Shown in pieces: positions 10,508 through 41,165 of a DNA stretch of 64,000 bases; the stretch's first letter is position 1, and every line of letters starts with the position of its first letter. The notes under the pieces were generated by a model. It searched no databases. It saw only the letters and a program-made list of their open reading frames with translations, and was not told the origin of the DNA. Source of the DNA: Eremomyces bilateralis CBS 781.70. Its lineage: Eukaryota. A program made the position numbers and the translations under genes. The stretch is from the NCBI GenBank assembly GCA_010015585.1, contig ML975172.1. One strand, given 5' to 3'.

Positions 10508-11141
10508 TGTGGATATCAGGAAGATAGTGTCCGTAAACAAATTGCAGTGCTGTTTTCCAGGAGGATAGCAAAACGACTGGTATTTATGAGATTTTTGTGG
10601 TGTTCAGATGGAAGAGGTAGAATGAAAAGATAAAATTTGCCTAGAGCAAGTACCGTCTGAGACATAAGAAACTGTAACTTACCATATGTTTCAACTCGTA
10701 CAAACAGGTGGTTCGTTGCTCAATTTCTTTCACTTTTTCTCTCGTTTGTTCATTTCAATTTGATCGTAGGCACCAGTCGTCCAGCCTGATCAGATGGGAA
10801 TATCCCGAATTCTAGGCAGTGTCACAGTATCCTGCCCATGAGCGATGGAAACTTATTTCTCAATGCCATTGAGCAGCATGTATTAAGACCCTTGACTTTC
10901 GATGTGATCAATTCACTACCGCCGTCATTCCTAGCCAGTGCCTATGGAAACTCCAAGTAGTCGGTTGCCTCCTAGGCAAGTTCGAGCTGCTTCCACTCTC
11001 TAACCATGCTTAGGTATATAAGTATACAAAACGCTGCTATATCCATGTTCGTTTGAATCATCCAGTCCACTCAGCCATATGTAATAGTGCTTCCCTAGTC
11101 GTGTCAAAAGAACCAAAAACCATGATCCTGCAAACCAATAT

Positions 11142-16675: not shown

Positions 16676-19394
16676 ATGCGCCTTTTCAGCTCGACGATTA
16701 CCCCAGCTTCAGCCTGGCCGAGTTTGCCGAAGATGAGGTTCCTCGCTATGCCATACTCTCGCACACTCACACTTGGGGACATGACGGCTATGAAGTCACG
16801 TACAAAGACATCACAGATGGCACTGGAAGTGGCAAGGCTGGCTACGACAAGCTTCACTTCTGCGCAGTCCAAGCCAAGACTGACGGGCTGGGCTACTGCT
16901 GGATAGACACCTGTTGTATCGACAAGACAAATGCCGCCGAGCTTACCGAAAGTATCAACTCTATGTTTCGATGGTACCAGAATGCCATCAAATGCTATGT
17001 TTTCCTTACGGATGTCTCGGCTTCTATGAGCGAAGATGACAGAGACTCCCAGGTGCGGAATAGTCGGTGGTTCACTCGAGGCTAGACGCTACAAGAGCTC
17101 ATTGCTCCCCGATGCGTCGAATTTTTCTCGCAAAAGCGCGAGCTGCTTGGAGACAGAAAGACGCTAGAAAAGCAGATTCACCAGGTTGCTAACATTTCCA
17201 TTCACGCGCTTCGAGGGGAGCCGTTGTCTCACTTTACTATCGATGAGCGCATGTTATGGGCGGCAAACAGAATAACCAAGCGACCCGAAGACAAATTTTA
17301 CTCTCTACTTGGAATTTTCGATATTCATATGGAAGCTATTTACGGCGAGGGCGAGCATCACGCATTTCGGCGGCTCCTTAGGGAGCTCGAGAGATATTCG
17401 GAAAACCACCAGTTAAGCGAGTTGTTTCGGGATCAACTACTAGTATCCTCCGCCAGACAGCCAAAAACACCCCTAGAAAATCCGACATGGGTTGTGCCGT
17501 TTGAGCGGAACTCTCGCTTCACTGGCCGTGAGCCTGAGCTGGCTCGGCTCGAAGAAATGCTGTTCAGCAAGCATCGTACCGCGAAACTCGCGATCACTGG
17601 ACTTGGAGGTGTAGGAAAGACTCAGCTTGTTATCGAGCTGCTGTGCCGCGTCGCCGACAAGCAAAAGCACTGCTCGGTTATCTGGATTTCCGTAGTCAAC
17701 ATGGAAAGCCTACACCAATCATACTTGGACGCTACTCGGCAGCTTGGCATATCTGGATTTAAAGACAACAAGGCGGATATAAAGAGACTGGTGCAGGACC
17801 ATCTGAGCAAAGAAAGCACAGGGCGGTGGCTACTAGTGTTCGATAATGCCAACGACATCGATATGTGGATTGCCAAGGCTGGACCTGGGCTGCAGCAGCT
17901 TGGGCAGGGATCGCACCCTTTGATCGACTACCTCCCAAAGAGTAAGCAAGGAGCTGTTATATTCACGACGCGGGACAGGAAGATAGCAGTCAAGCTCGCG
18001 CAACAGGACGTCGTGGACGTTCCGGAGATGGGAGAAGACGCGGCTTCCCAATTACTAGGGAAGTGCCTGGTTAATACGGAGCTCGCCAAAAGCGGGAAAG
18101 AGACGGGTGCACTCCTTTTACAGCTCACCTACCTTCCGCTAGCCATTGTCCAGGCAGCGGCGTACATTAATGAGAATGCAATATTACTTACAGACCATCT
18201 GTCGCTCCTGGTCGAACAGGAAGAAGAGGTGATTGATCTTCTTAGCGAGGAGTTTGAAGACGACGGGAGGTATCGCGATATCATGAATCCGGTAGCCACA
18301 ACGTGGTTAATCTCGTTTGATCAAATCCGGCGGCGCGATCGGCTGGCGGCCGATTACTTGTCGTTTATGGCCTGTGTAGAGCCAAAGGACATTCCACAGT
18401 CTCTTCTTCTGCCAGGGGCGTCGCGGAAGAAGGAGGTGGATGCGATCGGAACACTTACCGCGTATTCGTTCGTCAATAGGCGGCCGGCCGACGAGTGCCT
18501 CGATCTCCATCGGCTGGTGCATTTAGCAACGCGGAACTGGTTGCGGAAAGAAGAGCTGCTTGCGCAATTAACCGAGAAAACTATTATGCGACTAGAACAA
18601 GTTTTCCCCGATGATAACCACGAGAACCGAAGCGTCTAGAGGGCTTACCTACCCCATGCGCGCTATGTGCTAGAGTCCAATCTTGTGAATAAAGATTGGA
18701 AACCCAGGTGGATCTTATGTGGAGGTACGGAATGTGTCTTTACAAAGATGGACGATGGAATGAGGCTGAAGAACCGATTAATCAAGTGTTCGATATGGAG
18801 AAAAGAGTGCTTGGCGCGGAGCATCCAGACACGCTGACCAGTCTGGCCAACCTGGCGTCGACGTACAGGAACCAAGGCCGATGGAAGGAGGCCGAAGAGC
18901 TGGAGATACAAGTGATGGAGACGAATGCGAGGGTGCTTGGCGCAGAGCATTCAGACACGCTGACCAGCATGGCCAACCTGGCGTCGACGTACAGGAATCA
19001 AGGCCGATGGAAGGAGGCCGAAGAGCTGGAGGTACAAGTGATGGAGACGAGTGCGAGGGTGCTTGGCGCAAAGCATCCCTCCACGCTGGCTAGCATGGCC
19101 AACCTGGCGTCGACGTACAGGAATCAAGGCCGATGGAAGGAGGCTGGAGAGCTGGAGGTGCAAGTGATGGAGACAAGAAAGAGGGTGCTTGGCGCAAAGC
19201 ATCCAGACACGCTGACCAGCATGAACAATCTTCCCTTCACGTGGAAAGCGCAGGGTCGAGATCCAGAGGCTATCGGTCTAATGATAGAGTGTACACGGTT
19301 TCGAGAACGGGTTCTAGGGGCTACCCATCCGCATTTCATTTCTTCCTCGAAAATCTTAGCGGATTGGGAGCTGAACGAGGCGCTCGTAAAATAG
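16676..19394 (+). pseudogene. Fungal NLR: HET - NB-ARC - TPR, pseudogenised
   Basis: HET motifs YAILSH(TH)TW, WIDTCCIDK, INSMFRWY, WFTRG*TLQELIAP; P-loop GLGGVGKT; LLVFDNA; LPLAIVQAAAYI; HPDTLTSMANLASTYRNQGRWKEAEEL TPRs. Lesions: frameshift near 16685, TAG 17083, TAG 18637, frameshift near 18707. Confidence 0.93.
18804..19225 (+). repeat. 126-bp (42-aa) high-identity tandem TPR repeats, about 3.3 copies
   Basis: Units start at 18804, 18930, 19056 and 19182 (AG[A/G]GTGCTTGGCGC...). Confidence 0.95.
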
Positions 19395-23690: not shown

Positions 23691-24405
23691 GAAGACGACA
23701 ATAGTAGAAGACTGATTATATTGATTGATTTCTATGGAGACTAACTAGTTAGTTGGGGATGTCTACGCAGTAAGTTAGATATAGACGGTTGATCACCTGA
23801 CTAATGATGCTTGAGGCATCAATCCTGTGGTGAACAGAATCTTTCGCACATCCGTATCGTCATTATCAATCCAATCCAGTTCATAAGATTAGTCTCTTAG
23901 ACTGGGAGATGCTCCAAGAGCCCACCTCATCAACCTGTGTTGAAAATTGCTTGCCGGTATAGAATCGCCCTGCAGAGAAGTCTCTCGTTCCGCTCAGCCC
24001 CCTGTGAAAGGGTGGTGAGAGGGCGGAACCTGTTGCCCAGAGGGCGACGAGGCAAAATGGATACGAATTGTTATCAAGCTACAAAAATCCGCCAGATCCA
24101 TATTTTGGAATCTAAGTAAGAGAATCGATATTCAGGGCAGCTAAAGTTTAGCACAAAGCGGCGCGGTCGCAATTGTTGAGTGCATCAAAGTCCTACTATG
24201 TCACTATGGGATCAGACCACATATCACCTAACTTGATTTTCGGCAAGGCTCCTGCAACCGCAGGATTAGACAGTGTAAGTGACAGCTTGCCGTGCTTTCC
24301 AGAGTCGCACCGCAGCTCAGTTCTAATTACCAGTAAATCTTTGTTTCATTCCTAGTCAGTATGAATAGCGCTGATAACATTTAGAGGGAGAACTCGGAAT
24401 ATTTA

Positions 24406-27332
24406 ATGCCTGGTAACGAGCCTCAAACCAATCCAGTGGAAGTCCAGCATGCGATGTACCCTCCCGGCCCAAGCCAAAACGCGCATGGATCCAATCTCAT
24501 GACGGTGGATGGCAGGGCCGTACGGCTCTTTTTAGAGTGGATCACCGGATTTGGAGCTTCCTCGCCTCCAGCAGACGAAGAGTTCAAAGCTTTCGCTTGC
24601 CTTACACGTGTCCCCGTTGATGTTGTCCGAACTTGGTTTGCGAATTATCCTGTCGTATCTGGAAATGACTCAGGCTTCCATTCTGGACATCAGACTTCAA
24701 CACTCTCAGCTATCCCTAGCCTACCGTCATCGGGCACCGCTGCAAGCTCGACTCCACTTAGTGAAAAGACCTGTCCCAGAAGCCGAAGAGAATTGTGCAA
24801 GCGGACGTTGGATGAGAGTTGCTTGGGACGAAGCTCAGACTCGATCTATCAATGTACCCGAAAATGCGGTAGACGATTCCGGAGACGGGATATGTGGGAG
24901 AGACATGAATGTATATTCCTCCCTTCTCCACGATACCACTGCTCGATTTGTGTCTCCGAAAAAGGAAATGCGAGGGTCTTGTGTCGGAAGGACAAACTCC
25001 GGGAGCATTTCAAGCGCTTCCATCCGACGCTGAATCCGAAAAATTACGAAATCTCTAGCAAAATTAAATCTGCGGGAGTGCTTCCGACCTGGTGCGGTTT
25101 TTGTCAAAAGCGCGACCAATTTTTTGACCTCGATCAGCGATTTGGACACATCGCAAACCATTTCAAAGAAAGGAAGTGCATGCTTGAGTGGGTCGATGAA
25201 GAAACTCAAAAGGAGGTCACAGAACAAGACAATGACGACTTCGGTGGGAACGAGCCTGGAGAGGACTGGAATTTCTTCGAAGACCTCGACTGGAACGACC
25301 TTGACTTCAATGGTAGCGGACACAGCTCAGCCGGTAATGGATATATCTCCAACAGCAACTACTCCGGGTTCGGCGGACACAATTTCAGTCGATTCTGTCT
25401 CCGGATGGCTGACCATAGTATCATCTATCCTCACCTGACCCCTGAGAACTTTGTCAGTCGGCGTCTCTTGGGCGTGGGAGCCTTTTCAATTGTTGATGAG
25501 GTTATTGGGCTACTCTCTTTGATGAAATTTGCGCGCAAAGTGCCCACTAGCTCTGCACGCGCTGCCTACCATGCGTACAACGAAATCGAAATCTTGAAAC
25601 GCATCAGCCATCCACACATTGTCTCGTTGGTTGGGACCATCTCATTCAAAGGTCGGACAGCATTGCTTCTGTTACCAGCCGCCGATATCAACCTCAGAGT
25701 TTGGTTACGAAACCTTGATGAAGCTAGACCTCAGCGTTTAGGGAAACTAGTTGCAATCTTCTCGCAGCTTACCTCTGGATTGCATTATCTTCATGGAAGA
25801 ACGCCGCCGATTATTCATGGAGATATCAAGCCTGAAAACATCCTCATTATTGAGTCAAGGTCCCGTCCCATCCAGGCCTTTTTGAGCGACTTTGGCTCTG
25901 CACAGCGATTTGGACCCCGCAGGTATGGACAAGAAATTGGCCCCATAACAACGGTCTATGCTGCCACTGAATTGAGACGGCCAGGAGCTACTATCAGCCG
26001 GTCTGCCGATATATGGTCACTAGGATGTATCATGCTCGAAGCACTGATCTGGATTCTTGATGGAAAAGTTCCTGATAGAGCACTTTCCGGAGTTTGGACT
26101 AAACCCATGGAGCAGCTAGCACACCTAGGGACGATTTTGGAATATCAGAGAACGCCGTTGATAGGCATGTTCGACTATATCAAGTCAATGCTTAACGAAG
26201 ATCCCGCAAAGAGACCTGATATTGGTACGGTTGGGAAGGCCTTAGAATCCTGCATCGAGTATGTTATTCTCAGGCTTGGCCTTCTCATTGAAAATGAATA
26301 ACGCTGACACCTCATTGGCTCCGATCTAGATTAGGTGGGGTTCTCAAACTCCCCCATTACCCTCTGGCGGTCCGTAGAGAGCGTCATGAAGAAGGTGCCC
26401 GCAAATCTAGTAACGAGTCGCAACTCGATCTAGACCTTCTCGGTCTTAGCATGAAACCACTCGACGACTATTTTATCCTAAGACATGCTCTGAATAATTC
26501 TGGTCAAATCTGGGACTTGCTCCGGTTGCACAGTCGACTCATTGAAACCAGGTCACTCGATATCGTTGAGTCAAGTCGCTGGAATGAAATGTCGAACAAG
26601 TTACGTGCTGATTCAATGGCCGTGGAGCTTGGCATTGGATCGGAGGACGACGATACGAGCCTAGAAACTGATATTGCCTCGGATCCGTTTGTCGAGTTGA
26701 AGATCAGTACGCAATCTCCACCAGGGAGCATGCGGGATACCCCTCTTGTTCCTTCACGCCGCTGCGTAGTTGAATCATGGCTTTCCAACCCCGAAAGCTG
26801 GTCACTTAGGAAGGCACCGGAATTCGCGCACCGTTCACTGCCAGTTGTTGTCCCTAGCTCGCAGAAAGTCTGCCTTCATTCGCAAGCTAAGGAATTCCCC
26901 AACTCTTTCGAAGTTTTGGATTCAGAGGTCGAATGTGGAAGCACTGATGCCAACGTGCGATCCAAGCCTCTCAAGTTCTCATGCTGGTTTGAAGGCTTCG
27001 AAGAGCAGTCATCGGCGGGTCCATCCTATTATACTGGGGAACGGCTATACTCCGTTTTGTCAATGAACGAATCGCAATATGAAGGATCCTGGACTGCTGA
27101 CGAATTTGCCATTGGAGGTAAGATTGAAAGAGCTGCTACGCACACTCCAAGGCTGGACGGGGACACCATCGGCACCTTGACTTCTGGAATTATGCGTTCC
27201 CCGATTGAGGACGCGTTTGGATCCAAGAGCATGACGGAGAGCAAGGATCGAGATGATGGCTTGGAAGACCTCTCATCGGCATATGACAATCCTGTAGCCT
27301 TCGATCTAGGGTTTCCATTCTCTCCTAGTTAG
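24406..27332 (+). CDS. Homeodomain-like / C2H2 zinc finger / Ser-Thr protein kinase fusion with C-terminal extension
   Basis: LTRVPVDVVRTWFANY; three C2H2-like fingers; kinase LGVGAFSIV, ARK, HGDIKPEN, DFG, DIWSLGC. Intron 26259-26329 puts ORF 26451-27332 in frame. Short 5' exons upstream of the acceptor at 24384 are possible. Confidence 0.8.
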
Positions 27333-31222: not shown

Positions 31223-31683
31223 ATGCATCTCAATGCTGATATACACCTCTGACGCTGGCACAGAATGCTGGGTCTATCACGGCAAACGCCTCCATCATGG
31301 TACCGAGACCGAGTCCGCGAAGAGCTGCAGGAACGCCGGTCCGCCGAGTCCTTCTGTCAAAAGGTCAGCGAGACATCCGATGTCTTCTTCCCCCTCAGCC
31401 GCGCTCAATATGATGGCTTCCCAGTTCGCAAACTACCCGAGTTTGTGGCCTACCACCATGGTTTGGTTTATTCGTACATGATAACGAAGTACACTTTGCG
31501 CTGGAGCTTCTATCGGACGGCTGCAATGCTCTGCAATGTGCCTCGCTACGACCTCGTACGGGAGGTGGTGAGTCCTGGGAAAGATCCCAACTTGACGAGG
31601 TTGCTTCCCGGCACCAGATTGACCCTTTGGAGTATAAGCGAGTTAGTCGCCGACTACGACGGGTATGGCCACTTCTCCCCTGA
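31223..31683 (+). pseudogene. Small protein with MazG-like (all-alpha NTP pyrophosphatase) acidic motif, disrupted
   Basis: Reconstructed MHLNADIHL*RWHRMLGL...WYRDRVREELQERRSA...KVSETSDVFF...EVVSPGKDP/LDEVASRHQIDP...RRVWPLLP*. TGA at 31250; 1-nt frameshift near 31590. Confidence 0.55.
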
Positions 31684-32251
31684 GAACAGCTCCGGGTATG
31701 TGGGAGGCATGACCTCTGGTTCCATTATGACGGATAGGAAGCAAATGATGAACTACGATTTTATATTTCTGGATGGTTAGATCTTGTTTTACGACTGAAA
31801 GGGTTCTGGTAGATGCGGAAACGCTGTCCAGCAACTTCCAAAAGCCAAAGATTGTATGCACTTGTGAGATGGTGACGATTCCCTGTTTGCTCGCCTTTCA
31901 TATTTCATATTTGCTTCTCCGCATTCAACCATTCGGTGGACAGGGGCACGTTTGTCAGAACAATCAGTGGGCAGGCAACATAAACATCAACAAAAGCAAC
32001 GTGCTTACTATTAATCAGACTAGAGCAGCGTGAAGCATCTATGCGAGTCTATAATTACAGCCCTTCATTATCTGCGGTGGTTGGATTGTGCCTCGTTGAG
32101 GTCAGTTTGCCTTCGTGGCTCCGTAGTCCCCTTCACTGGAATCCGAAGTATAAAGGCAGTTCCATCCGAAGGCGATTGGATCTCATCGAAAAATTCATCT
32201 TCAAGGTTATTTCATGACGAGCAACCGATCGAACACGGTCACCGAACCCTG

Positions 32252-34296
32252 ATGGATTCTCTGTCCGACCAGCCTACAGGCTCAGATGCCGGATCCTCTT
32301 CCAACGTTAAACCAGTAATCATCGGCATCTACGGAATACCAGGGTCAGGCAAGACATTCTTGCTGAACCAACTCCAAAAAGAACTCGAAGGAGAGGATTT
32401 CAAGTTCTATTAAGGCTCAGAGGTGATTGCCAGTCTCACTGCCGGCGGTCTCCGTGCTTTCCAGGCTCTAGAGGAGAGTTCGAAACAAAACCAGCGGAAA
32501 CTTGCCATCGACTGGATCCGAAATGAATGCGTGGAGAGCAAAAATGTTGAGGTAGTCACTGGACACTACATGTTTTGGCCTGAGGGAGGAGTTGAACGCA
32601 GGGTATACACTCCAAATGACCTGGACACGTTCACGCATATCATCTACATGACCGTTGCCCCCAAACTGGTGATGGAGCAACTCCTGAAGGATACCAGAAG
32701 CCGACCACCCATGTCAATTGAACACCTGAAGAGGTGGCAAGAAACCGAACAAACCGAGCTGCTTGGACTTTGCTACGAGCATAGCATCCTATTCACAGTC
32801 AGTTTCGCAACCGGGCGTGGCCTCGAAGATCATACACTGCTTCCAATGTAAAGATGAAGGCATCAACCTAGAAAGCATCGAAAAGAGCTCGACGAAATCC
32901 TGGAGGCTGCTGGAGGGCAAGGAAAGCTATATACAGTGGTAGTCTTCGATGCCGATAGGACATTGGCTGCCGAGGACAGCGGTACACTGTTTTGGGAAAA
33001 GCTCGATCAGGTTATGCAACCGCTCCCTCGCGATAACCCCGTTGAAGGCCCTATTCAGCAGCCCCATGGGGTATTCTTATACCGCGTTTCGTCAAGCCGC
33101 TTTATTATATGAAGAGGCGGTGGACAACATCGTGTTCGAGGCCCTCTGCGAATCTACGGCCGCTGCATAACGATGCACCCTGGGCTCGTATTGTTGTTGC
33201 GAGAAATAGCAGGACAGGAGCATATCACCGCACTGGTTGTCACTTGTGGACTGCGTCTGGTCTGGGAAAAAGTACTTGAGAGACAAGGCCTGTCGAACAC
33301 CGTGAATGTCATCGGCAGCGGTCAAGCCGGTGACGCATCGATCGTTACTCCGGCTGTGAAAGCCGCATTGGTTAGACGTTTCCGGAATACTTTTAAGACA
33401 TATGTCTGGGCGTTTGGAGATAGTGTTCTGGATTTGCCCATGCTCCAGGCGGCGGACGTACCCATTGTTGTAGTTGGGGAGGAGCATCAAAGAGGCAAAT
33501 CCATGGACCAGCCACTGCTGGACGCTATCAACAAGGGTCTTGAAGCGCACCAATTGGTCATACCGAGCACCGCCTCCTGTCGACTCGATTCAGGGAAACT
33601 TCCACTCGTGAAGTCCACGATCGAGGCGTTTATCAGCTCAATCTTGTTGGGTCGGAGTGAACGAAACTTGTCTCGGGTCCGTCATGGAACAGGCTGTAAC
33701 TCAGCCAAACTTCTCATGACGCCGACGCGCGACTCGAAAGTTGCTAGTCCTATCCTGAGAGAAGCCCATCGCCGAGTTTGATGGTACCTTGCGGTGAGTA
33801 TCTAACCGGCATGATCGGCATGGAAGAGTATGCGATTCCCCACGTCCAGGGCCACGAGACGATTGGATATCGACTTTGTCACGAAGGACAGACTTTGATC
33901 GTGGCATTGATGCGCGGGGGAGAGCCAATGGCTATGGGCGTTAACGATGCCTTTCCACTCGCCATGTTCATGCACGCATCGCAGCCTTCTCATGTGACGC
34001 CTCATCATCTGGAGGGACAACGGACGGTGCTTCTGGTGGACTCGATGGTGAACAGCGGCAAGGCGGCCACTGGTTTCATACAACACGTCCATAAACTGGA
34101 CTCTACGGTTCAAATTGTGGTGGTTGCGGGAGTTGTCCAGGTCGAGTCGATCAGGGTCGGAGATCTAGCCGCGGAACTTGACCTGAGACGGAATGTTAGC
34201 CTCATCGTTCTCCGTCTTTCGGATAATAAATTCACCGGCGAAGGAACTACCGATACTGGCAATCGACTCTTCAATACGACTCGACTGGATGGATGA
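32252..34296 (+). pseudogene. P-loop nucleoside/nucleotide kinase - HAD phosphatase - uracil-PRTase-like triple fusion, pseudogenised
   Basis: IGIYGIPGSGKT; HAD FDADRTL (32948), VVTCG, K, FGDSVLDLPML; PRTase ALMRGG, LLVDSMVNSG, TDTGNRLF. Stops at 32411 and 33779 and about five frameshifts. Confidence 0.85.
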
Positions 34297-37755: not shown

Positions 37756-38315
37756 TTTGCTTGATGAATAACCTGGAATATAGAAGAATGAAAGGTGTAC
37801 GATGGTATATATACCGGTATTGAGTGAGCAGGAAAATGCCAATCCGGGGAACGAACATCCAAAACGCGCCCGATCTCGGGGCTCATCCGATCCACAGTCT
37901 CGGCTTCGTGTGAGTCTAGACGGCCGAGTTTCGGCTCTGATTTCGGGACCCTGTCATTGGCTAAGATGATAAGATCCCGATGAACGGAGAGTCCGAGCTT
38001 TGGCGCATATCGATGCCAGAATCGTAGTCAATAGCAAAGGGAAGACCTGAGAGTCCAGATATCAACCTGTGCTTCGTTCATGATATGCTGTGAACATTCC
38101 GTGCATCTAACCATTGGTCTTTCTAGTTATTGTATATAAGGAATAAGATATTGCAAGACTAATTTCAAGGCTTAATTCATAAGGGACAAGTCAGTTTAAG
38201 GGAAATCACGCTGACAAGCAGCATGGTGCAACCATCCGATCGCCACTCGTTAATATCACATTCACTTCTCCATTCATCTTCATATCCATTTTGATTTTCA
38301 CCTTCAATCACTTCC

Positions 38316-41165
38316 ATGCGGCCAAATCTCCGTCACCTTTACACCCTGCCCGTCAAATCTGCTGCTTTTCGACACGGCCGCTTCACTACCCGCAGACATA
38401 ACACCCCTAACAACAAACCTCCCACAGGTCATCCCGAATCTCCGAATCTGACCAAAGAGGCGAATACCCAATCCAATCACTTGAAAGTCAAGCGAAACGA
38501 CCCATTTGCAGCTCCTCGGATCCGCAAACACCCTTTCGGACCTCACTCTGGTACTGCGATACAACCTCCTTCCGCCTCCTCACCTCCGCAGACCCTAGGA
38601 AAAGTTCCATCCGACGTCCCCAGCACGATTCCAGACACAGCCCAACGATATGACCATTTAAAAGACAAGCGAACAGGTCAATTTGCGGATCCTCGGATAA
38701 GGAAACTCAAACGTAAATTCTCCCCCGTCCGAATCACAACACATCCGAGTACTACACTACAGCCGCTTCCTCTCCCCTCGCTTTTACGGAGGCTCGAACA
38801 GGATCCGTCTGACTCAACGCTACCCGTTCGAAAGCGACACATAAAACAGAAATTGAAATTGAAATCTCTCGTTAGACGCGTCGAGAACGGTCCCAAACAA
38901 GACGAGTTGGTTGGATCAACGTGGTGGACAGCTTCAGCCCACGAAGAAGCTCACCAAGAGGGTGAACAAGACAACCACCGAGTACCCGACCTCGATACCG
39001 ACGTCGATATAAGAGATATGTCTCGCTATGTGCCCCCCGCGTTCCGTAAGCGCGAACAACAAGACCCAGAGTCACCCAGCTCTCCCGTCCAATCGACCGA
39101 GACTCCCACGTCGCCTATGCAGGAACGGCCTCCCCCAAAACCTCAACCCCTTCTCTACACGAAAACAGAGCTGCATCACTATTTCTGGCCGGATGAAGAC
39201 GTTCAGACTCTTCGGCACGCCTTCGATGAGCGAGCGCGGATGAGCAATGGGCCTGGACGTGTGCCAACGGCTAATATTAAGTCCGAAGCAGAAGGAAAGG
39301 AGTTTGCTGAGGTTGTCAATGGCGTAGACGCACCGGCTGCATCCACCACTGCTCAATCGGAAGCTGCAGATTTCCCTGAGGGAGTCGAAGAGACCAAGAT
39401 CGAAGAGACTAAGACCGAAGCCACCAACGACGAAGCCACCAACGACGAAGCCACCAACGACGAAGCCACCAAGGCCGAAGTCACCAAGGACCAAGCCAGC
39501 ACTATTACCCCCACCGCTACCGCCAACCCTCCATCTCCCATCCAATCTACCAATGCAGCCGGCAAATTCGATACGCTCCAATCCTCCGCCGCCACCCCCC
39601 ACGACCTCTCCATGATCGTGATCCACCACGGCGCAAACCCCCTCTGGCACACCCAGCGCACCATCTTCGCCAAAACCAACATCCACCTCCTCCCCCATCT
39701 TCCCGGCGCCATCCCCCAAACCAACCAACCCCAACCTCCCACGTCCCGCGCCGAGTTCGTCGACGACTGGGACTACGTCCCCTCCTCGGAGCGTCTCGGC
39801 TCCGGTCATCCACCTCCGCCCCCTCTCCGCCCCCTCCCGACCACAGGATCCACCAATCCTGCCGCTAAGCTCCCCGCGGTCCCCGTCTTCGAGCAATTCC
39901 GGCGTGGCGGCGCCCGCAATTTCCGGTTCGCGGGGTATTTCCGGATGGCGCGACTTCAGATATTGGCGCCGTGGAGCGACGAGCTGAAGCGGATGATGGC
40001 GATTAAGTGGGAAAGGCGGGATGCGAAGCGGAAGGCGGAGGATTGGAATCGGGGGATGGGGTGTTGGTGGGCGGTGGTGGGGTTGGAGGAGGTGCAGGGA
40101 GGGAATACCGTGAATCATTCGGGTGCGGCTACGGCTGCGGCCGGGACTGCAGAGACGGTTGTAGATGCGGCGACGGAGACGGCTACGGATACAGACACGA
40201 ATACGAGCTCGGCCGATGCGAACGGCAAGGAAACTCACCAAGCGAGCGGCACGCAGCCTACCGCGCTCCCTCCCCCCGCCATCGACCGCATCGACCTCGC
40301 CATCCACCCCGATCACTCTCCCTCCGACTTCGAGAACCATCGCGGTCAACGCCAGCCATTCGGACGCGGGCGCGGACGCGGACGCGGAACGGAGAATCGC
40401 TTTGGCGGGGGTTGGGGTCGACAGGGGTATGCGGGCGGTTCTAATGCCGGTGGCGGTTCTAGGTATGGGTATGGTGGAGAGAGGAGGGCAGTGGAGGATG
40501 TGAGGCTGGAAGAGGAGGTGAGGGACGCGAGGGGCATGGTCCGGGATGTCCGGTTGGAGGAGGCCGGGACGGAGAATCGCGCGCCGAGGGGGATGGTGCG
40601 CGACGTGCGGTTGGAGGAACAAGAAGAGCAGGAAAAGTTGGCGCGATATGCGCCGTTAGAGGAGAACCGGGCGCCGCGGGGGATGGTGCGAGATGTGCGG
40701 TTGGAGGTGGAAAATAGAGCTCCACGAGGGGTGGTGCGCGACGTCCAGTTGGAGGAAACCAACGCGCCGAAGCCGACGGCGAGCTATGTCCCCTTCACTG
40801 AACCCCGAGGCCGCAGAGACATGGTGCGCGACGTCTGGCTAGAGGAACAAGAAGCGGCCCAGGCGATGGCGGAATCTGTTTCGCCAGAGCAACCCCGTGG
40901 TCGCAGCCGGACGGTGCAAGATGGACAGGTCGAGGAAACTGAAGCGCCAGCGCCTACGGCGAGCTATGTCCCCATGGACGAAAAAAGGGGTCGACGGGGC
41001 ATGGTGCGGGACGTCCGGGTGGAGGAGCAGGAGGAGCGGGAGCGACAGGAGCAGATGAAGAGGGCGGCGATGGAGCAGCGGGGACAGAATGGGGAGAGGG
41101 TGGAGGAGTCGTATGAAGGGAAAATCTCCCCACGGCTGTCGTATCGGCCGTTATGGGAGAGTTGA
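38316..41165 (+). CDS. Hypothetical protein (949-aa ORF; real start may be MSRYVPP at 39018) with RG-rich segment and C-terminal repeats
   Basis: Uninterrupted long ORF. Globular-looking core (IFAKTNIHLLP...VFEQ...FRFAGYF...WWAVVGLE), GRGRGRG, and 8 copies of an RGMVRDVRLEE-like motif. Confidence 0.8.
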   Translation: MRPNLRHLYTLPVKSAAFRHGRFTTRRHNTPNNKPPTGHPESPNLTKEANTQSNHLKVKRNDPFAAPRIRKHPFGPHSGTAIQPPSASSPPQTLGKVPSDVPSTIPDTAQRYDHLKDKRTGQFADPRIRKLKRKFSPVRITTHPSTTLQPLPLPSLLRRLEQDPSDSTLPVRKRHIKQKLKLKSLVRRVENGPKQDELVGSTWWTASAHEEAHQEGEQDNHRVPDLDTDVDIRDMSRYVPPAFRKREQQDPESPSSPVQSTETPTSPMQERPPPKPQPLLYTKTELHHYFWPDEDVQTLRHAFDERARMSNGPGRVPTANIKSEAEGKEFAEVVNGVDAPAASTTAQSEAADFPEGVEETKIEETKTEATNDEATNDEATNDEATKAEVTKDQASTITPTATANPPSPIQSTNAAGKFDTLQSSAATPHDLSMIVIHHGANPLWHTQRTIFAKTNIHLLPHLPGAIPQTNQPQPPTSRAEFVDDWDYVPSSERLGSGHPPPPPLRPLPTTGSTNPAAKLPAVPVFEQFRRGGARNFRFAGYFRMARLQILAPWSDELKRMMAIKWERRDAKRKAEDWNRGMGCWWAVVGLEEVQGGNTVNHSGAATAAAGTAETVVDAATETATDTDTNTSSADANGKETHQASGTQPTALPPPAIDRIDLAIHPDHSPSDFENHRGQRQPFGRGRGRGRGTENRFGGGWGRQGYAGGSNAGGGSRYGYGGERRAVEDVRLEEEVRDARGMVRDVRLEEAGTENRAPRGMVRDVRLEEQEEQEKLARYAPLEENRAPRGMVRDVRLEVENRAPRGVVRDVQLEETNAPKPTASYVPFTEPRGRRDMVRDVWLEEQEAAQAMAESVSPEQPRGRSRTVQDGQVEETEAPAPTASYVPMDEKRGRRGMVRDVRVEEQEERERQEQMKRAAMEQRGQNGERVEESYEGKISPRLSYRPLWES
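39416..39472 (+). repeat. 15-bp coding tandem repeat (ATNDE)n
   Basis: CCACCAACGACGAAG x3 plus partial flanking copies. Confidence 0.9.

Follow-up and report, generated by a model that had tools for sequence, protein, structure and literature searches.

The all-alpha nucleoside triphosphate (NTP) pyrophosphatase superfamily is defined by a metal-binding E-x-x-E ... E-x-x-D motif. In histidine synthesis, HisG and HisE bring together a phosphoribosyltransferase (PRTase) and an all-alpha pyrophosphohydrolase that acts on its product, and fusions of a kinase with a uracil phosphoribosyltransferase (UPRTase) occur in animals and plants (UCKL1, UKL). The PRTase and HAD genes of the Ter system have been proposed to make a nucleoside or nucleotide derivative (PMC7824862), and a preprint documents a linkage between viperin and a nucleotide kinase (10.1101/2023.09.13.557418). 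Here, we analyse a stretch of 64,000 nucleotides (hereafter the window) of contig ML975172.1 from the fungus Eremomyces bilateralis CBS 781.70 (GCA_010015585.1), which holds two neighbouring genes that recall parts of these systems: gene 1, for a small all-alpha protein resembling MazG and the dimeric dUTPases, and gene 2, for a fusion of a nucleoside monophosphate (NMP) kinase-like domain, a HAD phosphatase, and a UPRTase domain. In our reading, what remains here is the dead copy of a nucleotide-metabolism module, two genes that are intact and adjacent in many fungi and that would serve the control or sanitation of a pyrimidine nucleotide; we give this reading a probability of about 60%.

The comparison with the described systems reveals partial likenesses. 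Gene 1 shares with the all-alpha NTP pyrophosphatases (MazG, dimeric dUTPases such as 5myd_A, HisE/PRA-PH, DR2231, and iMazG) a helical hairpin with an E-E-x-x-E...E-x-x-D motif, and its 153 residues come close to the 160 aa of dimeric dUTPases. Unlike them, it has two additional C-terminal helices and a K-Y-T-L-R-W-x-F-Y-R / E-V-x-N-P-x-K block without counterpart in the aligned rows, it lacks a profile match to known members, and its range comprises fungi and, outside them, nearly exclusively Patescibacteria. Like UCKL1 and UKL, gene 2 joins a nucleoside/nucleotide kinase-type P-loop to a UPRTase domain, but its kinase is of the AAA_17 type and closest to archaeal-type adenylate kinases, a HAD domain lies in between, and it is linked to a MazG-like partner. 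The combination of a nucleobase PRTase with a HAD phosphoesterase is common to gene 2 and the Ter system, whereas the pair has no Ter genes nearby, a PRTase of the UPRTase family, and a fungal host. As in HisG-HisE, a PRTase goes with an all-alpha pyrophosphohydrolase, but here the PRTase is of the UPRTase type and there is no link to histidine genes.

A preliminary description of this DNA, made from the sequence alone, had announced two co-oriented and apparently intronless genes about 570 bp apart, both decayed, the first with an EExxE...ExxD spacing and the second chaining a Walker-A kinase, a HAD phosphatase, and a PRTase. The present analysis bears out each of these points (Table 1). Both genes lie on the + strand and have no introns, and most of their homologues align in one intronless piece; the acidic spacing is present in gene 1, and Pfam identifies AAA_17, HAD, and UPRTase in gene 2. 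Alignment to homologues gives a total of one stop and one frameshift for gene 1, and gene 2 carries four in-frame stops (32411, 32849, 32855, and 33779) and three frameshifts (~33035, 33165, and 33795). The conserved HAD block P-L-K-x-L-F-S-S-P-x-G-Y-S-Y-T-A-F-R-Q-A is readable only in the open reading frame (ORF) at 32943-33170.

Table 1. Positions of the features discussed in the text. Locations are window positions unless a locus name (L) precedes them.
Feature	Location	Strand	Details
Gene 1 pseudogene	31223..31683	+	ATG at 31223, stop at 31681-31683; all-alpha, MazG/dimeric-dUTPase-like family of 153 aa, without Pfam model
In-frame TGA, gene 1	31250..31252	+	replaces the first R of the family motif L-L-R-R-W-H
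Acidic motif E-E-x-x-E(12)E-x-x-D, gene 1	31316..31381	+	R-E-E-L-Q-E at 31316-31333, S-E-T-S-D at 31367-31381; helices 2 and 3
1-base frameshift, gene 1	31592..31596 (~31594)	+	K-D-P-N-L in one frame, D-E-V-A-S-R-H-Q-I-D-P in the next
Gene 2 pseudogene	32252..34296	+	ATG at 32252, 568 bp past gene 1; NMP-kinase-like (AAA_17)/HAD phosphatase/UPRTase fusion
Kinase domain, gene 2	32252..32851	+	Walker A GIPGSGKT; in-frame TAA at 32411-32413 replaces a family E
Two in-frame stops, kinase-HAD linker	32849..32857	+	TAA at 32849-51, TGA at 32855-57
HAD domain, gene 2	32858..33600	+	DADRT (motif I), GDSVLD; frame excursion from ~33035 to ~33165
In-frame TGA and frameshift, start of UPRTase domain	33779..33798	+	TGA at 33779-81 (family G), frameshift at ~33795
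UPRTase domain, gene 2	33796..34296	+	MRGGE, PRPP loop VLLVDSMVNSGK, GTTDTGNRLFNTT; Pfam PF14681, 4.1e-31
Introns of the deposited model P0123	31571-31602, 31642-32272, 32402-32434, 32798-32875, 33011-33047, 33132-33217, 33776-33828		
279-aa radical-SAM protein (bacteria)	L156:3022-3858, L157:898-1734, L160:3163-4002, L166:5001-5825		
NLR-type gene	17086-19394	+	NB-ARC (6e-11) and TPR_10/TPR_12; ~12 kb upstream of the pair
Protein kinase ORF	24385-26301		
Overlapping ORFs	38295-41165 / 39072-40655	+ / -	956 and 527 aa; no Pfam match

The lesions are real in the sequenced DNA. Contigs built independently from two DNA runs, both of which possibly represent the source sample, show no difference to the window between 31000 and 34500, at a word depth of 174-258; hence, the lesions are not consensus errors of one assembly. 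An origin of the stops by repeat-induced point mutation was considered and set aside, the inferred changes being mixed (C to T and G to T).

The deposited protein P0123 (P152DRAFT_468344, 694 aa) is the model of this locus (window 31265-34293), and 693 of its 694 residues fit the window exactly, in eight pieces. Such a fit speaks for the alternative that the model is correct, i.e., that one spliced gene encodes a 694-aa fusion, with every stop and frame change falling inside a true intron. Against it, each of the seven introns covers either a lesion or the intergenic spacer, and every one of them removes residues conserved in intact homologues, cutting through conserved blocks; four measure only 32-53 nt and another is the 631-nt spacer itself. 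Moreover, reading straight through the window gives a residue-by-residue alignment to homologues that are intact and intronless, and the stops fall on conserved E, R, and G residues. One contig of run X3, which is RNA by guess only (depth 6.6, its low-depth contigs covering 12 of 30 bins), is unspliced across 33776-33828. We consider a spliced fusion very improbable. Both genes are pseudogenes, and P0123 is an annotation artefact, so that the genome of E. bilateralis carries a chimeric model over two pseudogenes. Automatic annotations elsewhere likewise merge gene 1 and gene 2 (P0277, P0336, P0290, and P0382).

The identity of the gene 2 domains is clear. Read through with X at the stops, gene 2 has 688 homologues; those among the matches listed are about 700 aa long and have the same three domains. 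The pieces of the window match AAA_17 (2.4e-10; 41.3 bits for a cut-off of 27, as expected of an NMP-kinase-like P-loop), HAD (1.6e-12), and UPRTase (4.1e-31; 108.5 bits for a cut-off of 27). In 40 intact homologues, the Walker A motif G-x-x-G-x-G-K of the kinase is invariant, as are D252, D254, T256, K387, G406, D407, and D411 of the HAD domain (PF12710, 40 out of 40), which we take to represent motifs I (D-x-D-x-T), III (Lys), and IV (G-D-x-x-x-D). The UPRTase domain of the same proteins shows little or no variation in its motifs M-R-G-G-E, V-D-S-x-V-N-x-G-K, and G-x-G-T-T-D-T-G-N-R-L-F-N-T-T. With these motifs preserved, all three domains look catalytic in the family. Among solved proteins, the nearest to the kinase is an adenylate kinase (6pjw_A), at a weak E-value of 0.0057, and the gene 2 profile matches a uracil phosphoribosyltransferase (1o5o_A, 1.3e-7). 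The UPRTase domain of the intact gene 2 protein P0228 scores 45 bits against NCBIfam upp (TIGR01091), for a cut-off of 208, and thus falls outside the upp equivalents; the UPRTase gene of the bacterial relatives described below scores 71 bits. Because the score is so far under the cut-off, uracil as the substrate of gene 2 is a lead, not a finding. Weak matches to PRTase_2 were also seen, in the window (0.0095) and in P0277 (5.3e-4).

To quantify the linkage of the two genes, we scanned metagenome contigs with a gene 1 profile, which resulted in 73 loci, of which 51 were fungal-like (50-90% identity in the best segments) and were grouped into 28 lineages at 97% nucleotide identity. The lineages were searched with P0228; six had too little flank, leaving 22 that could be judged. 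Since the loci were selected by gene 1, the rates describe the presence of gene 2 given gene 1 only. The adjacency of homologues in other fungi, on which the idea of a functional unit in the preliminary description depended, is found in most lineages: an intact or contig-cut gene 2 lies within 289-1340 bp of gene 1 in 16 of the 22, and in three more (L009, L013, and the L043 group) an N-terminal gene 2 fragment alone stands beside it. The 16 pairs occur in four orientations: tandem with gene 1 first, as in the window (nine lineages), convergent (four), divergent (two), and tandem with gene 2 first (one). Named genomes show the same association. The two genes have neighbouring locus tags in a Pseudogymnoascus strain (V496_01625 and V496_01626), and 12 named gene 1/gene 2 pairs agree in the size of their longest contig, two such contigs being only 4385 and 5870 bp long. 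Across 14 lineages, pairwise identities in gene 1 are correlated with those in gene 2 (r = 0.946; none of 5000 permutations was as high). Since such a correlation is expected for any linked genes of related genomes, this value shows co-inheritance and nothing more. The fungal flanks have no conserved third gene, any other gene being common to at most three lineages. Overall, the pair is inherited as a unit in fungi and was lost as a unit in this window. When a complex of the two proteins from Pseudogymnoascus was predicted, the output was "no answer" (score 0.00), which neither supports nor opposes binding.

To our knowledge, few metabolic modules of two genes are conserved in fungi, secondary-metabolite clusters aside. 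The present pair stands out by being tightly linked in several orientations, intronless, patchy, and in conflict with the species tree (see below). In a literature search, with most subscription journals outside its reach, neither the pair nor the gene 1 family was found to be described. The classes of enzyme involved are familiar; what seems not to have been described are the gene 1 family, its occurrence in both fungi and Patescibacteria, and the conserved pairing of the two genes in fungi.

With a threshold of E≤1e-3, 165 homologues of gene 1 were retrieved, the closest reaching 2.8e-52 and about 75% identity; most are 153 aa long, those that are named are called "hypothetical protein," and none of the 120 among the matches listed has a precomputed Pfam domain. 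When 1.84 billion representative proteins were searched with a profile, the family comprised only 226 clusters at E≤1e-3. Outside fungi it was found in the genomes of 75 species, almost all of them titled as Patescibacteria (Nomurabacteria, Paceibacterota, Saccharibacteria, Parcubacteria, and Uhrbacteria), so the family connects fungi with this group. In the 75 Patescibacteria loci, it has no conserved neighbour, any one gene being common to at most seven. Its acidic positions E33, E34, E37, E50, and D53 (P0001 numbering) are invariant in 50 of 50 intact fungal homologues. Across fungi and Patescibacteria, the last four of these are invariant (24 of 24 and 49 of 49 sequences), and position 33 is D or E. 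R60, K89, R93, N117, K120, and K123 are also invariant from fungi to Patescibacteria, and P118 is so in one alignment of the two groups and nearly so in a wider one. Two peculiar loci were noted in this survey. A homologue at L053:470-892 combines a bacterial-like core with the fungal-type end W-P-L-L-P and may represent an intermediate lineage. One Patescibacteria-like contig has two paralogues of gene 1 (L067:8291-8719 and 10611-11048), with an NTPase_I-T (ITPase/XTPase-type) gene between them and a NUDIX gene after the second.

The conserved acidic residues of gene 1 have the E-x-x-E ... E-x-x-D arrangement of the all-alpha NTP pyrophosphatases. AlphaFold (AF2) models of a fungal and a bacterial member, with predicted local distance difference test values of 90.1 and 94.4, both consist of six helices and place the acidic residues on a hairpin of helix 2 and helix 3, as in the four-helix core of the all-alpha fold. 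We aligned the models to 48,161 PDB representatives, and all-alpha NTP pyrophosphatase entries come first in the searches with both of them, dimeric dUTPase being the best structural neighbour. The nearest named clusters of the ESM Atlas are PF04447 (0.83) and PF01503 (0.82), both under the 0.9 line, and the top row in BFVD is a DR2231-like NTP pyrophosphohydrolase (E = 0.36). The earlier assignment of the small protein to an NTP pyrophosphatase fold is therefore supported at moderate strength by the structure models and left without support by sequence profiles and by Foldseek significance. Judging from the models, gene 1 is quite likely a divergent new family of this superfamily (MazG/dimeric dUTPase/HisE), and thus probably a new, undescribed branch of it.

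These elements suggest how the module might work. The UPRTase-type domain of gene 2 would convert a pyrimidine-type base and phosphoribosyl pyrophosphate (PRPP) into an NMP, and the NMP-kinase-like domain would convert this NMP into a diphosphate. The product of gene 1, in a metal-dependent reaction, would hydrolyse the NTP to NMP and pyrophosphate, and the HAD phosphatase would drain the NMP to the nucleoside. The pair might in this way control the pool of one pyrimidine-type nucleotide, of uracil or of a uracil-like non-canonical base, such that the triphosphate could not accumulate or enter nucleic acids. The pyrophosphatase activity, the pyrimidine substrate, and the purpose of sanitation are what we infer. 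Intact pairs should be easy to express, so the substrate is directly testable.

Several observations weigh against this reading. The enzymes run forward (PRTase and kinase) and in reverse (pyrophosphatase and phosphatase), which would cancel out in a futile cycle were they to act on a common substrate; we can thus only guess at the direction and purpose. Three of the 22 lineages have gene 1 with no gene 2 nearby: the L001 group (10 kb seen on each side), L041 (10 kb downstream only), and L051, where the gene 1 copy is itself a pseudogene. None of five Patescibacteria genomes bearing gene 1 has a UPRTase above the cut-off; hence, gene 1 does not need gene 2. The assignment of gene 1 to its superfamily also lacks a trace in sequence comparisons. 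Its ORF in the window has no Pfam family at E≤0.1, its profile has no match among PDB sequences, and the search of 1.84 billion representatives provides no bridge to a known family. There is no match in PADLOC or in the NCBIfam bridge searches and no significant match to the profiles PF03819, PF01503, PF08761, and PF04447. An hhalign comparison with six MazG proteins of Patescibacteria gave a probability of 2.9%, its only stretch placing S-E-x-S-D-V of gene 1 on E-L-G-D-V-L of MazG. Foldseek searches of the PDB (twice) and BFVD returned nothing at E≤0.001.

The same enzymes could also serve ordinary pyrimidine salvage, gene 2 being a uridine-kinase/UPRTase-type protein with a nucleotidase, gene 1 a house-cleaning dUTPase-like enzyme, and their linkage a matter of housekeeping co-regulation. 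The alignment of the UPRTase domain with bacterial uracil phosphoribosyltransferases (1o5o_A, and upp in NCBIfam) agrees with this, as do the dimeric dUTPase that comes closest to gene 1 in structure, the kinase-UPRTase fusions of animals and plants, and the nucleotide salvage on which Patescibacteria are said to depend. However, the pair is patchy and dispensable (dead here, truncated in three lineages, and with gene 2 missing beside gene 1 in three), and no standard model fungi occur among the named matches listed for either gene. The upp score is far from its cut-off, the base-binding tail of gene 2 differs from what we take to be the canonical UPRTase base-binding motif, and the gene 2 tree conflicts with the taxonomy. 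We regard plain salvage as distinctly unlikely.

The relatives of gene 2 in bacteria bear on a different alternative. In a few bacteria (Bacteroidota metagenome-assembled genomes [MAGs], Kordia, Hormoscilla, Brachyspira alvinipulli, and a Ureaplasma MAG), its three parts are three adjacent genes. A radical-SAM (S-adenosylmethionine) gene stands directly upstream of this trio in four out of six loci scanned with Pfam (L156, L157, and L160, with L159 of another type). The protein of the first type has 279 aa, with CHLRCDNC and C-terminal cysteines, and was found in only four Bacteroidota genomes (Table 1); in three of them it directly precedes the trio, and in the fourth the trio is on a different scaffold from the radical-SAM gene, which lies at the end of its own. 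It matches pVip models at 1.5e-4 to 1.9e-3, and its best NCBIfam and PDB matches are weak ones to MoaA; the best match of the L159 protein is of the PapB type. The bacterial radical-SAM proteins are under every viperin cut-off. The L156 kinase matches the PADLOC model VakA (3.3e-12), which, from the descriptions of the pVip models, we infer to be a viperin-associated kinase. In a Bacteroidetes MAG, whose contig L155 begins within the kinase gene, a gene for a 906-aa LRR-Roc-COR-Schlafen (AlbA_2) protein (L155:1398-4115) lies between the HAD and UPRTase genes, and HNH, Uma2, and PD-(D/E)XK genes lie near the split set in L158 and L160.

In view of these contexts, the module might instead produce a metabolite that is modified or nucleoside-like (a signal, a toxin, or an antiviral chain terminator), as an accessory and horizontally moving conflict module: the PRTase and kinase would build a nucleotide, and trimming by gene 1 and the HAD phosphatase would then yield the monophosphate and the nucleoside, to be released or used in signalling. 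The radical-SAM genes, the VakA match, and the Schlafen and nuclease-type neighbours of the bacterial trio favour this alternative, and the Ter-system and viperin-kinase precedents give it a model: the bacterial split genes, like the described linkage, combine a radical-SAM gene with a kinase matching VakA. Yet these radical-SAM proteins are not viperins, a radical-SAM homologue is absent from all 73 metagenome loci and from the window, and the fungal kinase domain has no VakA match at E≤0.01, which places the fungal pair outside the pVip systems. The bacterial radical-SAM/VakA association may be taken as a weak lead to a conflict-type context, and we hold a metabolite-making role to be unlikely. 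Gene 1 homologues were not found beside the bacterial kinase/HAD/UPRTase genes. Together with the lack of a UPRTase in the Patescibacteria mentioned above, this means that the two genes have separate prokaryotic histories and are paired only in fungi.

The phylogeny of gene 2 was inferred with IQ-TREE from 27 named proteins and conflicts with the fungal classes. Four Pezizomycetes lie inside a clade with four Leotiomycetes (99/98), Halenospora is nested among Pezizales (97/94) on short branches, and two Pseudogymnoascus strains are 0.55 substitutions per site apart. The starred branches force at least three changes for Leotiomycetes. Transfer between fungal classes would explain this conflict, as would old paralogy followed by loss. 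One protein, deposited under the moss Sphagnum balticum (P0124), groups with Wilcoxina (Pezizomycetes) and is probably a fungal contaminant of that assembly. The flanks of the pair also differ among lineages, from housekeeping genes to a polyketide synthase. In L022, a piggyBac-like DDE_Tnp_1_7 transposase ORF (L022:11653-13581) starts about 390 bp after a gene 2 cut to its first 128 residues, which suggests disruption by insertion, and a Helitron-like ORF lies in L041. The tree conflict, the lineage-specific flanks, and the transposon genes beside truncated copies would all suit the conflict module considered above, although old paralogy with differential loss also yields such a tree. A related reading is an intronless two-gene cassette that crosses fungal classes and makes or destroys a modified pyrimidine nucleotide against viruses or competitors, with a gene 1 family shared only with Patescibacteria and a gene 2 that is the fused form of a rare, radical-SAM-driven bacterial operon; we find it doubtful.

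Two other flanking genes were recorded. One lineage has a 1211-aa open frame with FAD_binding_4, phosphomevalonate-kinase-like, and Pribosyltran domains some 6 kb upstream of the pair (L039:404-4036); in another, the pair is followed at a distance of 3.6 kb by an OTT_1508-like deaminase ORF (L016:16633-18474).

The proximity of an NLR (NOD-like receptor) gene in the window had been put forward in the preliminary description as fitting a defence role, an argument that finds no support in the comparison with other lineages. The proposed role itself, in antimetabolite resistance or antiviral defence, is not supported either. The NB-ARC/TPR gene is 12 kb away (Table 1), and none of 81 flanking ORFs of at least 200 aa, in 19 representative loci of other lineages, has an NB-ARC or NACHT domain, which also counts against the conflict-type alternative. 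The proximity in the window says nothing about the function of the pair. The other neighbours in the window include a protein kinase ORF upstream and, downstream, genes for APC10 and an isocitrate/isopropylmalate dehydrogenase. Further on, the two long ORFs that overlap on opposite strands (Table 1) lie in a stretch with a G+C content of 0.60-0.64 and strong swings of GC skew.

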